A stretch of DNA of 63,844 bases, counting the filler, from Neolecta irregularis DAH-3 (taxonomy: Eukaryota), in NCBI GenBank assembly GCA_001929475.1. It is 21 parts of 21 records of this genome, joined end to end, with 100 filler letters (N's around TTAATTAATTAA, not from the genome) between each part and the next. Parts side by side here need not be neighbours in the genome. Positions count along the whole stretch, not along the records: positions 41,876 to 44,043 come from LXFE01001284.1; positions 44,144 to 46,316 come from LXFE01001286.1; 19 more parts are not named here. One strand, written 5' to 3'. A model generated the notes under the pieces. The model saw nothing but the letters and a program-made list of their open reading frames with translations, searched no databases and was not told the origin of the DNA. Shown here piece by piece: positions 41,876 through 46,316 of the stretch (its first letter is position 1; every line of letters begins with the position of its first letter). Both the position numbers and the translations under genes were made by a program.

Positions 41876-43048
41876 CAGCTTAGGACCTTGCAGACGAAGA
41901 CTTTTGCGCCTTCTGGATCTGGGCCTCTGGAGACGCGTTCTTAGGGAGCGAGGTTGCCTTCTTCTGAGGATATTGCTGCTGCGCTGTTTGCCCCATACCG
42001 AGCGAGGTTGACTTCCTCTTTGAGCTTCCGAGCTTTTCTTGCGGCCAGATCGATCCTCCGCCTGTCACCGGTATTGCCAACATCTTGGATCGGGAAGCAG
42101 CCGACTTGCTTGTTGACCTTCCTGCGGATGGGGAGATCAATCGCGTATTGAGGATGTCGTCATTTGGTTTGTCGGCGGTGGTGGTTCCTTGTTCTTGGTG
42201 GCTGTAGGTGTTCCAGGAATCCCCACAAAAATGACCATCTCTGACATCTGTCCTTGTTGATGATCCAATAGGGCGAGTATTGGATCGTGAGATGAAGGTG
42301 CTTAGTGACTGTTCTGACCCTTTTCCATAGCAATTATCGATCTTTGGTACCTTAAGAGATACCACATCAGGTTCCACTTCAGAAAACTTTCGTTTGCTTT
42401 GGTTACGGTTGTGGCTTTGAGTGTCTTCTGTTGCAAGTCCTGATGCTTCATTACTTGGTGCTGACCAAGGCTTGATCCCAGGCCATTCAAGTTTCCCACC
42501 TTTCTTTGGAACTGGACGCGCAAGTTTTACAAGCACTGTTTGTGCCCAATATTCTTGTTCTTCTAAATCGTTCGTTCCTGAAAGTTGTGCAATGATCTCC
42601 TTGGCCTTTATTTCAAAAGGTGTACTATCTTTACTCTTGTACTAGCAGATTAGTGCAATCAAGAGTGCAGATATTCACCAATGCTTTCGCAGACTTGATC
42701 AACGCGCGATAACGTAACCCGCAAGCGTGGTGTGTGGAAACAAAACCCGACACTGAAGGATCACATCCATCTAAAACGAGTGCAACGACCTGGAAGGAAG
42801 GTCCATACCATATTTGCATATCATCGTAAGCTGTTGGTATACAAATCGGAAGGCCTAGTTTAGGTTTATTTTTGAGCAAGAGTTTCCACTCGTCTACTAT
42901 TTGCTGTACGGTTTTTTCGACCACAAGTGAAGTTTCATCATCAGACTGATGTGATGCAACAAGATGAAAAATCCCAAAGGCAACAGACAATAAGGACCTG
43001 TGAGAATAAGCACAAGCGTGAAGTGATGCAGTACCATCTAAATAACAT
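41876..43048 (-). CDS. Secreted header-domain family protein C with long disordered basic tail
   Basis: Exon 1 43035-43048, intron 42998-43034; signal peptide MLFRWSLLSVAFGIFHLVAS; GLPIC..WYGPSF..LDGCDP; tail with SKRK motifs. Confidence 0.72.
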
Positions 43049-43191
43049 ATCGATGTAAGGTCGGCGTTTAAGGGAAGGCCGTGAAATATGTTGCACGCAG
43101 GATGTAGCTGGATGGCAGAGGTGTTTATAGGATTATAGATTGTTGTTTGTTGATTGGTGAGCGCGGTGGTATAGGCTTTCAATCTCTTGGG

Positions 43192-43343
43192 CAGTGTTGT
43201 GGATGGGCCAAAGCGGGCTTTTTAAAAAGCCAGGCCCATGGGCTTTTTTGAGGGTCCGGGGAGCATGGGCTTTTTCCTAGACAGGCTCATGGGCTAGGCC
43301 GGGCTTTTTTCTAGTCAGGGCCTATGTCCCATCTACAACATTA
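43192..43343. mobile_element. MITE, ~150 bp with imperfect 18-bp TIRs
   Basis: CAGTGTTGTGGATGGGCC ... GTCCCATCTACAACATTA; internal GGCCCATGGGCTTTT repeats shared with 5720-5790, 48400-48475 and 51122-51200. Confidence 0.7.
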
Positions 43344-44143
43344 GGCCACCTTAATAGGATAATACTATTTATATCCTATATTGATACTATTTATACTATT
43401 TATACCTTATATTTATACTATTTATATTATATATTAATAGTATTTATGTTATATAACACACTATTTATATATTACTTTGACACCTTTGAATCAATTGACT
43501 GAATCAAAAATGTGATTCAGTAAAAATTTATATAGTTTATTACAGTCGAGTTTCCATAGCGGTGATCTGCTTGTGGCTCATGTATATCCTGTTCCTGCCT
43601 TGGGTTGGTGTCAGCACGCGAACTTGGTTTTGGTGCTTAGTGAGGTAGGCTATGGTCAGGTACTTGTCAGCACGCAGGTTCCAATCAGTGTTTACAGTGA
43701 GTTCTGACTGCTTTGATGAAGGGTAGGTTATTAGTGAAAATGGGGTTGAAGCTCTGTTGTGCGAGGCGGGGTCTTGTAGCGAGGGATCAGGTTATTAAAG
43801 AAAGGACTTGACTCGTTATTCAGACAGTATCCTCGTCTATCTAAAAGGAAATCTTCGCAGCCCTTTTATCCTATCCGCAGAACACACGCTATGCCAAGTG
43901 GCTCGAAAAAACAAAGATAAGAAAGTAAGTAAGTAAGTAAATAAAGATAAGAGCTTCTCTAAACTAGACCCAGTGAGACAACCGGCCGCATTTCCCCTAT
44001 ACGAGAGACCGATGGCGAGCCAGACCGATCCAATGACCTAGTTNNNNNNNNNNNNNNNNNNNNNNNNNNNNNNNNNNNNNNNNNNNNTTAATTAATTAAN
44101 NNNNNNNNNNNNNNNNNNNNNNNNNNNNNNNNNNNNNNNNNNN

Positions 44144-44553
44144 GCGGGGCGGGCGGGCGCAGTGTGCGGGCGCCGTGAAGATGCCTGAGCGCGGGTGCGC
44201 CGTGCGGAAGTAGGCCTTGCTGCGCGGGGGCGTGAGCGGGAGCGCGGCGGCGGCGGGAGCGCGTACCCGTTGACGCTGCCGTCGTTTTTGCCCAGGCCGC
44301 GGAACTCGCGCACCAGCTCGACGCCCACAAACAGCCCGGGCTTGTCTGCGACGGGGCCGATGTAGCGCACGACGCCCGTCATCGGCCCGGGCACGTCGAC
44401 GACTTCGCCGACCGCGAGATCGGGCGACTGCGGGCTGCGGGCGGGCGGCGGCCGTGCGGCGGAGTTGGCGGTGAGCTGCTGCAGCGACTGTTTGCGCGCG
44501 AGGCCCATCGGCGTGCGCAGCGCGGGGCGGGCGGGCGTCGACACGGTCGCCAT
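44144..44553 (-). CDS. CAP-Gly microtubule plus-end protein (CLIP-170/Tip1/ClipA-like), 3' truncated
   Basis: VGEVVDVPGPMTGVVRYIGPV..KPGLFVGVEL..GKNDGSVNG|KAYF. Confidence 0.8.
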
Positions 44554-45637
44554 GGTGTTGAGCGGCGAGTCGCAGCGAGGCTCCGCGCAGGCCAACAGAC
44601 GCCGATGCGAGGGTGTTTGCGGAATGCGCTGCTCGCAGGCAGCACAATCACAACAGTGGTCGGTGGGAGCCCCGCACACGTGGCGGCCGTCCGCAGGCCC
44701 GCAAGGACGAGCCGGCCGAGAGAACAGACTACGCGGAATAGCGCCGCCGCATTGAACCCGGACAGCTGGAACAGTCGGTGTCCCAGGCTGCAGCACGCCA
44801 GGCTTGCCGGTGTTCGCTGGGGGTTCTGACGTGATCGTAACACGCCTGTTCAATCGCCCCAACCAAGCCGTGCATAGACTCTCCTTGATATCCCAGTCAT
44901 CCAGAACTATAAGAGAGCTGGAAATATGAGAGCTGGAAATAAGAGAGCTGGAAATAAGAGAGCATAGAGGATATATTATGGGGCATGTTCACACTGCAGC
45001 GTGCGCCATAGGCGTACCACCCCCCATTCCATGTGGTTGCCCAACACTGAGATAGACTAGTTATATCGGGCTGGAGGGATTAGGCGGATGGGGAGATATA
45101 TCAAAACAAGGAGTATCTCGTTCTCCAGGCTATAATACAACCTGGTTCTCGATTCTATCCAGTGTCCTCTCTATCGCGGATACATAGGCATACACAAAGG
45201 GCGATGAGGCGTTTTGCACACTTTTCCTCAACACAAGTTGTATCAGACAATATTCAGAGCTTTCCACTTTGGGTTGCTCACGATTTATCCAACGTTATGA
45301 TATTGATGATTCTTTTCTTCTTTTCAACACTCATGCGTAGACTTTGTTGTCTTACTGAAGTCATCTGGTAACCCCTATGGTATCCATGTCTCGTTCAACT
45401 TACCTTTTAAACAAAAACAAGAGTAGAACAGCAATATTGATACAAATGTTCAAACTTTCACCAACTCCGTTTGCTTGATCCTAGCTGAATGCAAAAGACC
45501 TAAAATTGGCCACTCAAACACTAATATCCGTTGAACAAGGTCTCAGAGGGCTATGTTTCATATTGATCAGACTCACAAGTTGAACTTAAATAAAATTTAG
45601 CTCTTGCTACAAGACCCTCACTGACCTTGATATCACC

Positions 45638-46316
45638 ATGTTCTTTGCGTGGTAATCCCCTTTCGCCCAAACACTGCTTATTCTTCAAGGCCATTATTCG
45701 TTTGTGCTCTTTCTGGTTTCCAGCTCGTTGCACCACAAATGCCGGGTGAAACCAACTGCCAGGAAGCATTTGTGAAACGAAGAGTGACCGAGTTGAAAAC
45801 CTTCCTGGACAACAAGAACCCAAGAGGAATCCCCCTTTGCAACCCGGACGCCTACAAAAATATCAAAGATGCGTACGGAGATGACTTTCACATCATTACA
45901 TTCGTGTTAGATGGATGTCAGCCTCATCTCCGAAGCAGCCTGATCTTGTCATATGCGGATTGTAAACAACGTCGCTTTCATTTAAGACGTTCACTAAACA
46001 GATTGGTGAACAACTACACCCATCATTTTCACTAATCGACTAGTTCCTCAAAACGTGGCTTACGATTGATGAATTCATGGCATTGGATATTATCACAAGA
46101 CTTGCAAACCAATACACCAATTATCCACCGCAACTTTGGCTTGCAAATGAGCTTGTGGATGCTGCTCGTCCATATCCTCACCGGCTAAATGCGACAATTG
46201 CACCTGGGTTGATGGACTGGGTTGCAATCGACCGTGCAGCATTACACCCGGCAACGGAAGGTACTCTTACTCTTCCCAATATGACCACAGCAAAACGGAG
46301 ACATGATGATCATATA
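45638..46316 (+). CDS. Secreted header-domain family protein B, 3' truncated
   Basis: Exon 1 45638-45651, intron 45652-45689; signal peptide MFFAWPLFVCALSGFQLVAP; GIPLC..AYGDDF..LDGCQPH; second intron at the same position as in paralogues. Confidence 0.72.

Follow-up and report, generated by a model that had tools for sequence, protein, structure and literature searches.

Crinkler proteins, which occur in oomycetes and some fungi, consist of an N-terminal leader and a constant head bearing a header motif of the LxLFLAK type, followed by a short boundary motif and swappable C-terminal parts. A comparable layout is present in a family of proteins encoded by Neolecta irregularis DAH-3, which we analyzed in a stretch of 63,844 nt from this fungus (assembly GCA_001929475.1). 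This stretch, referred to here as the window, consists of 21 contigs of 1,061-7,345 nt (GC content 0.41-0.60) with N spacers between them, and contains three family genes, named A, B, and C, one each on the contigs at positions 25965-28750, 41876-44043, and 44144-46316. An earlier note made from the sequence alone had regarded these genes as an uncharacterised, lineage-specific family following a Crinkler/RxLR-like logic and possibly targeted to host nuclei. Our analysis favours, at slightly better than even probability, a secretory-pathway family restricted to Neolecta (Taphrinomycotina, Ascomycota), composed of a conserved head and a variable, disordered tail, and acting extracellularly or at the fungus's own cell wall. 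The protein family is new, although its kind (lineage-specific, modular, and of the secreted type) is familiar.

In comparison with Crinklers, whose variable parts are folded domains, the Neolecta proteins have disordered, low-complexity tails and a helical head with two cysteines, carry neither LxLFLAK nor HVLVxxP, match no Pfam family in a library whose inclusion of a Crinkler model is unconfirmed, and come from an organism that is no demonstrated pathogen. Kex2-processed fungal pro-proteins of the alpha-factor type likewise open with a signal-type leader and a conserved region, and carry a K-R pair at a fixed place within a disordered segment, with repeats beyond it, as in two annotated Neolecta members (P0004 and P0006). 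These pro-proteins, however, have a short pro-region and repeats separated by K-R, whereas the Neolecta family has a well-folded head and repeats without K-R between them. Within the same subphylum, the candidate secreted effector superfamilies I and II of Taphrina share with the Neolecta family a restriction to one genus, modularity, fast evolution, and conserved cysteines, but they comprise hundreds of members with tested suppression of plant defence, compared with at least 8 known genes in Neolecta (accessible part of PMC7036362). Our profile search returned Neolecta relatives only; the presence of Taphrina proteomes in the searched library is unconfirmed, and superfamilies I and II were compared by description. 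The powdery-mildew candidate secreted effector proteins (CSEPs) with a Y/F/WxC motif, as cited in the accessible part of PMC7036362, are also small, genus-restricted, and of the secreted type, and likewise keep the position of an intron and have a conserved feature near the N-terminus; the Neolecta proteins differ from them in having no Y/F/WxC after the leader (8 of 8 sequences), and no similarity between the two groups was detected.

The motifs that define these systems were searched by regular expression in 8 sequences, namely A, B, C, and the annotated N. irregularis proteins P0001-P0004 and P0006. Neither an LxLFLAK-type motif nor HVLVxxP was found (0 of 8 each), and a different boundary motif, W..L..RP.P, marks the end of the domain in all 7 sequences that reach it. 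RxLR effectors carry their motif, usually together with dEER, no more than about 60 residues past the signal peptide; here the single R.LR match falls within the fold of P0002 (residue 97), and EER gave none (0 of 8). Within the first 60 residues, the sole match to Y/F/WxC was F.C at residue 8 of the gene C product, inside its leader, with none in the other 7 sequences. The Crinkler/RxLR-like reading thus finds no family-defining motif in these proteins.

Family membership, gene structure, and splicing

The window holds four copies of the head domain, two of them in gene A (A1 and A2), which share 26-42% identity and 17 invariant columns that include two cysteines, Y-G, and G-C-x-P. In tblastn comparisons most pairs of copies matched at E 1e-8 to 1e-17 and the weakest, with gene B, at 5e-6 and 0.009; within the window, the four copies match one another only. 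A profile of these copies was searched against 1,835,955,588 representative proteins and gave 5 matches at E <= 0.001, of which 4 are true relatives. These are P0001-P0004 (E 2.4e-12 to 2.5e-5), hypothetical proteins of N. irregularis DAH-3 encoded on contigs of 2.3-11.3 kb, and they hold both the core of the domain and the part encoded by exon 3. The other match, P0005, was dropped as a false positive, because it is a repeat protein of low complexity to which the profile aligned only in 7 short stretches. A fifth annotated member, P0006, was obtained by a word-index search with an eight-row alignment (A3); this search returned 3 proteins, missed P0001 and P0002 despite both being query rows, and is not a census. 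The family comprises at least 8 genes and at least 9 domain copies. Metagenome scans with a tighter alignment and with a single exon gave 291 and 539 pattern matches, respectively, none of which was confirmed. Neither 7 exon translations nor 5 full-length homologues matched a Pfam family at or above the cut-off; we took the sub-threshold matches to MS_channel_3rd, MMS21_N, and bpX6 (E 0.06-0.2) to be noise.

Within the reach of these data, the family appears to be confined to a single genus, Neolecta. The locus tags of the five annotated members are not mentioned in the searchable literature, and the accessible parts of the literature on the Neolecta secretome or effectors gave no description of the family. 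The earlier note fares well on these points: the four copies that it had grouped by a shared domain do align, the further copies that it expected elsewhere in the genome exist as five annotated paralogues, and the profile search that it proposed, made against 1.84 billion proteins, returned as true relatives N. irregularis hypothetical proteins only. A match to a housekeeping or transposon family, which it had named as evidence to the contrary, was not found, there being no Pfam, transposase, or reverse-transcriptase domain. Genes A, B, and C themselves were not returned by the profile search, the word-index search, or a search with exon 3 of gene B, and are therefore absent from the public protein set. 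They are probably missing because the very short first exon and the contig breaks defeat gene callers, so that the family, and perhaps other genes of this build, would be under-counted.

The gene models are as follows.

25965..27109, minus strand: gene A, with exons 27109-27096, 27055-26719, 26683-26508, 26468-26051, and 26013-25965 (the last cut by the contig end)
27095-27056 (40 nt, GC-AG), 26718-26684 (35 nt), 26507-26469 (39 nt), and 26050-26014 (37 nt), minus strand: introns of gene A
41880..43048, minus strand: gene B, with exons 43048-43035, 42997-42679, and 42641-41880 (364 codons plus stop)
43034-42998 (37 nt) and 42678-42642 (37 nt), minus strand: introns of gene B
45638..46316, plus strand: gene C, with exons 45638-45651, 45690-46005, and 46044-46316 (the last cut by the contig end)
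45652-45689 (38 nt) and 46006-46043 (38 nt), plus strand: introns of gene C

The spliced frames of A, B, and C are open without internal stop over 331, 364, and 201 codons, respectively, and exon 3 of gene B forms by itself an open frame of 253 codons. All three genes have a first exon of 14 nt followed by a phase-2 intron, and a second intron in phase 0 placed directly after an invariant Leu. The intron ends are GT-AG in 7 of the 8 introns, the exception being intron 1 of gene A, which has a GC donor. A pattern combining start context and first exon matched the window at the A, B, and C sites only, with 0 matches expected (100 shuffles). The spliced models confirm the architecture given in the earlier note (three genes with a 14-nt exon 1, a phase-2 intron of 37-40 nt, and a phase-0 intron after Leu); its first-intron coordinates (27056-27095, 42998-43034, and 45652-45689) are exact, and splicing of the models, which it had proposed as a check, leaves all three frames open.

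Intron removal was analyzed in contigs from two runs of one study, X1 and X2, both guessed to be DNA (the library type of X2 is unrecorded), which were placed on the gene B contig (41876-44043) only. The X1 contigs retain intron 1 of gene B. In X2, record 11 (358 nt, 0 mismatches) covers 42759-42995 and 43033-43153, skipping 37 nt that have GT..AG ends on the coding strand and correspond to the predicted intron 1 of gene B, 42998-43034. Run data thus support intron 1 of gene B: at the junction put forward in the earlier note, a contig of a run guessed to be DNA has the intron removed exactly. The start codon is the first ATG in the 105-nt leader of this spliced contig. In a second X2 contig, a 14-nt first exon with 2 differences from that of gene B is joined directly to the start of exon 2; a paralogue therefore seems to be spliced like gene B. 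Intron 2 of gene B was accepted because its removal restores the frame, its position and signals are conserved in the four copies, and the annotated homologues read across it into the conserved half of the domain encoded downstream.

Genes A and C run off the ends of their contigs. The gene B contig ends in 62 nt (41876-41937) of high-copy overlap sequence, with a 95% match to 17004-17065, inside the coding sequence of a C2H2 gene of the window. The X1 depth at this overlap is 29,042 compared with about 500-1,500 in the adjacent sequence (about 20-50x the flanks), and run contigs exit it in at least 2 other directions. Because the stop codon (41880-41882) falls within the overlap, the true C-terminus of gene B is uncertain. 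On the gene C contig, the first approximately 700 nt (within 44144-44988) are far richer in GC than the remainder, and a CAP-Gly domain is encoded on the minus strand within 44144-44988 (Pfam E 5.5e-12); the sharp shift in composition near 44850 could reflect a chimeric contig or a GC-rich gene.

Leader, head domain, and tails

The proteins begin with a leader of about 20 residues. In A, B, C, and P0001 (counted from an internal Met), which are the members with an intact N-terminus, it starts with M-[LF]-[FL] and continues as a hydrophobic stretch (4 of 4), with a best 10-residue Kyte-Doolittle score of 1.92-2.23, equivalent to the top 2.5-5% of 734 internal windows. An N-terminal leader split by a tiny first exon, as described earlier for A, B, and C, is thus present by hydrophobicity. 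Gene A carries two tandem domain units in a single reading frame, and its unit 2 is a DNA-level duplicate of unit 1 including the introns (intron 2 and intron 4 are identical at 30 of 35 positions, the exons at 210 of 333), so the second domain copy previously noted in this gene is an in-frame duplication. The leader of unit 2, which is now internal, has dropped to a Kyte-Doolittle score of 0.89. This decay fits a signal peptide kept only where it is functional, and the leader is most likely a signal peptide for entry into the secretory pathway. A1 and A2 are the sole pair of domain copies that is not saturated, with dN/dS 0.62 at dS 0.76; the other 5 of 6 pairs (dS 1.4-4.9) were set aside. 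The rate between A1 and A2 points to fast or relaxed evolution, and positive selection is unsupported by a dN/dS of 0.62.

The head domain spans about 115 residues encoded by exons 2 and 3. The domain of about 120 residues delimited in the earlier note is real, but its end at the 'RP' motif was set too early, since the conserved part extends into exon 3 and about 45 residues past that motif. Two cysteines are invariant, in 4 of 4 copies of the window and in 8 of 8 rows of alignment A3. Their codons in genes B and C are at the following positions.

42843-42841 and 42765-42763, minus strand: codons of the invariant Cys of gene B, bracketing the Y-G..F and L-D-G-C core (42763..42843)
45838-45840 and 45916-45918, plus strand: codons of the invariant Cys of gene C, from the alignment

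In the AlphaFold2 model of P0002, residues 41-150 have pLDDT values of 69-96, and the N-terminus and the tail fall below 50. The model shows helices at residues 54-62, 67-75, 89-108, 114-129, and 135-147, the last two being encoded by exon 3, and a beta-bridge with single residues at 49 and 78. Because this bridge adjoins both invariant cysteines (Cys 50 and Cys 77), the pair probably forms a disulfide. Structure searches gave no relative: a sequence profile against the PDB produced one match (E 0.97), Foldseek against the PDB nothing better than E 0.72 (threshold E <= 0.001), VIA-align over 48,161 chains nothing better than Z 3.7 (threshold Z >= 5), and the ESM Atlas a best feature score of 0.78 and a best TM of 0.41, both within the chance range. 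These null results mark the fold of the head neither as new nor as known.

After the domain-end motif, two further features recur before the sequences diverge, and their positions in genes B and C are listed here together with a relic related to the gene B tail elsewhere in the window.

42465..42482, minus strand: PG..W of gene B, 9 residues past the domain-end motif W..LV..RP.P
42387..42395, minus strand: basic cluster K-R-K of gene B, at +38 past the domain end, at the boundary between the conserved and the variable part
46203..46220, plus strand: PG..W of gene C, at +9
46293..46301, plus strand: basic cluster K-R-R of gene C, at +39, with the contig end 5 codons further
48042..48266, plus strand: relic related to the gene B tail (41% identity over 80 residues; 75% over 208 nt of DNA), on a contig that lacks a head domain upstream of it

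Five of 7 members have PG..W at +9. A basic cluster at +38 to +42, in each case with a K-R pair, is found in B, C, P0004, and P0006 (4 of 7). Divergence among the members starts only past this cluster. The description of the tails as unrelated therefore fails for the stretch up to the cluster, where members have PG..W and a K-R cluster at about +40 in common; the tail labels B and C of the earlier note are swapped relative to its own order of start codons. Ser, Lys, and Pro abound in the tails, whose net charge is +13 to +20 in B, P0004, and P0006; the tail of P0002 is disordered in the AlphaFold2 model (pLDDT < 50). Tandem 33-residue repeats occur in P0004 (two) and P0006 (three), and gene B has one similar motif. 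When the protein collection was searched with the gene B tail, none of the 494 candidates reached E <= 0.01.

A K-R pair in a disordered stretch of a secretory protein is a usual target of kexin, and the classical monopartite nuclear signal has the core K-[KR]-x-[KR]. The four positional clusters read KRK-F, KRR-H, KKRK, and KKR-E, of which only KKRK of P0004 fits the nuclear core (1 of 4). A Kex2 site would be an accessible K-R or R-R pair separating pro-region and product; 4 of 7 members have a K-R pair at +38 to +42, where the model is disordered. Because K-R occurs in 4 of 4 clusters and the nuclear core in 1 of 4, we rate processing above nuclear targeting, and with low confidence the cluster appears more likely to be a kexin (Kex2-type) site than a nuclear signal.

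Weighing the readings of the family

Under the favoured reading, the hydrophobic leader would carry the protein into the secretory pathway, where a compact five-helix head would be braced by the Cys-Cys disulfide. The short conserved PG..W linker would end at the basic cluster with its K-R pair and be followed by the disordered tail. The family would have expanded by duplication, including the in-frame tandem duplication of the unit in gene A, and would evolve fast. Its job would most likely be extracellular or at the fungus's own cell wall, and the head would be the conserved part that either carries out the function or acts as a carrier. Neolecta is the sole complex multicellular genus among the mostly yeast-like Taphrinomycotina, and the accessible part of the genome paper (PMC5309816) describes a published N. 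irregularis assembly of 14.5 Mb (N50 16 kb, 44% GC, 5,546 predicted genes) and reports little gene-family gain. With so few gained families, this one, whose fold is unmatched, would be among the few candidates for lineage-specific extracellular biology; its members could help to build the wall or matrix of fruiting bodies or take part in contact with other organisms. If its members were ordinary wall proteins, their interest would be local to Neolecta genomics.

Several observations weigh against this reading, and some of them fit its competitors. The hydrophobicity of the leader is moderate, and the annotated models of P0002, P0003, and P0004 have no hydrophobic leader, the N-terminus of P0003 consisting of 110 non-hydrophobic residues. 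These points, together with the basic, Ser-rich tails that bear sites of the R-K-x-S type and the charges of +13 to +20 given above, would suit an intracellular family in which the N-terminus stays uncleaved and the Ser/Lys-rich tails have their role within the fungal cell, the proteins being, for instance, nuclear or phospho-regulated disordered ones. We consider this unlikely, because the leader lies at the extreme N-terminus in 4 of 4 intact members and decays when internal in gene A, and because the two invariant cysteines, side by side in the model, suit an oxidising compartment. The leaderless annotated proteins may have mis-modelled starts, as a 14-nt first exon is easily missed by gene callers and could explain them. 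The structural evidence also calls for caution: the P0002 model was built from 12 aligned rows only and has a mean pLDDT of 60.4, and the disulfide was read off secondary-structure output, not coordinates. As for splicing, X2 record 10 (42446-42786, 0 mismatches) passes through intron 2 of gene B unspliced and shows no joint there; if this retention were the rule, the product of gene B would stop about 15 residues past exon 2 and would have no tail. The intron-less form in X2, a run guessed to be DNA, could also exist as DNA, and intron 1 of gene A departs from the other introns by its GC donor. The remaining points concern the linker and the repeats: P0001, P0002, and P0003 have no basic cluster at the conserved place (+38 to +42), the folded domain contains K-R and R-R pairs as well, and in P0004 and P0006 the 33-residue repeats carry I-R-K and have no K-R at their boundaries. 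They bear on the idea that the head is a carrier or pro-domain and that a kexin cut at the K-R cluster releases the Ser/Lys-rich tails, some of them as 33-residue repeats, as products. The K-R pairs in a disordered stretch agree with such a cut; we regard this carrier reading as quite unlikely. If true, it would represent a new prepro-carrier system for secreted disordered peptides peculiar to Neolecta, a complex multicellular fungus whose gene set is yeast-sized, and could serve the matrix of the fruiting body or contact with roots or other organisms.

The reading of the earlier note as a host-translocated effector family, with the head as a delivery module and basic tails that take the protein to plant nuclei in the manner of Crinkler or RxLR proteins, seems to us very unlikely. 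The combination of leader, conserved head, and diverging tails agrees with it, as do the lineage restriction, the fast evolution, the K-K-R-K cluster of P0004 with its fit to the classical nuclear signal, and the lineage-specific modular effector superfamilies of the related genus Taphrina (accessible part of PMC7036362). However, RxLR, dEER, LxLFLAK, HVLVxxP, and Y/F/WxC are absent from the 8 sequences apart from the R.LR in the fold of P0002 and the F.C in the leader of gene C; there is no Pfam family, K-[KR]-x-[KR] is matched by just 1 of 4 positional clusters, the known genes are few (at least 8), and dN/dS is below 1. Neolecta is moreover called saprophytic in the accessible part of PMC7036362, and in that of PMC5309816 it is uncultured and known from fruiting bodies. 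The oomycete/chytrid frame in which this reading had been placed does not suit the locus either, since N. irregularis is an early-diverging ascomycete, the genes nearby are of fungal type, and no relatives other than N. irregularis proteins were returned. That the genes are non-functional or selfish DNA, either decaying pseudogene copies or the cargo of repeat elements on small repeat-bounded contigs, is highly improbable. It would account for the location of A, B, and C on short contigs (2.2-2.8 kb) with high-copy overlaps at their ends, for a dispersed repeat that abuts the promoter of gene B and has a 19-nt edge also upstream of gene A (described below), for the tail relic at 48042-48266, the GC donor of gene A, and the fairly high dN/dS of 0.62. 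Against it stand the open spliced frames (331, 364, and 201 codons, with the 253-codon frame in exon 3 of gene B), the 8 of 8 introns that have kept both their position and their splice signals (7 of them GT-AG), copies that differ by 58-74% in protein and yet keep the same invariant residues, the spliced form in X2, and a dN/dS below 1. Pfam scans found no transposase or reverse-transcriptase domain; with the open frames and the kept introns, this led us to reject a transposon origin.

Other features of the window

Open reading frames (ORFs) on the other contigs of the window encode domains of fungal type, namely perilipin-like, protein kinase, WD40, TRP/Flc, BRO1, and C2H2 domains (Pfam). 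The features of this part of the window that were placed by position are listed here.

4483-5493: perilipin-like ORF (Pfam)
16035-17321: C2H2 zinc-finger gene, with a short intron within the finger region
5721-5884, 10745-10953, 43238-43302, 48400-48470, and 54599-54716: copies of a dispersed repeat

The dispersed repeat is short and rich in GGCCCA and GGGCTTTTT, and its copies are 70-88% identical. Its 19-nt edge has identical copies upstream of gene A (27296-27314) and gene B (43196-43214), and two further copies with 3 mismatches at 2511 and 8141. It may be a MITE-like element (miniature inverted-repeat transposable element) or a common promoter motif.

Overlaps of about 60 nt with other contigs, 93-100% identical, are found at many contig ends, a pattern as from a graph assembler. 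Pairs of 57-73 nt with 93-100% identity are 9137-9193 and 9294-9350, 15578-15638 and 47962-48022, 16490-16562 and 61224-61296, and 63783-63844 and 62974-63035; the contigs 8133-9193 and 9294-12100 have an exact 57-nt end in common and are probably joinable. These overlaps reflect junctions of the assembly graph and have no biological meaning. Two GC-rich contigs (GC 0.53 and 0.60) share, at 2223-2500 and 59960-60487, a coding-like sequence with 69-83% identity that is itself GC-rich and internally repetitive and may represent low-complexity protein repeats or another organism in the sample. One contig carries direct repeats at 56702-57137 and 59109-59258 (156 nt at 88% and 59 nt at 90% identity), which adjoin a 279-codon ORF at 57559-58398 without Pfam match. 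Three long ORFs of 250-327 codons (50042-50998, 61792-62775, and 24287-25039) are without a Pfam family at E <= 0.001 and may be further lineage-specific genes. The perilipin-like gene at 4483-5493 has a relative, P0008, with 85% identity, on 4 short contigs of a JGI source, which hints at a second Neolecta-like fungus in public environmental data.

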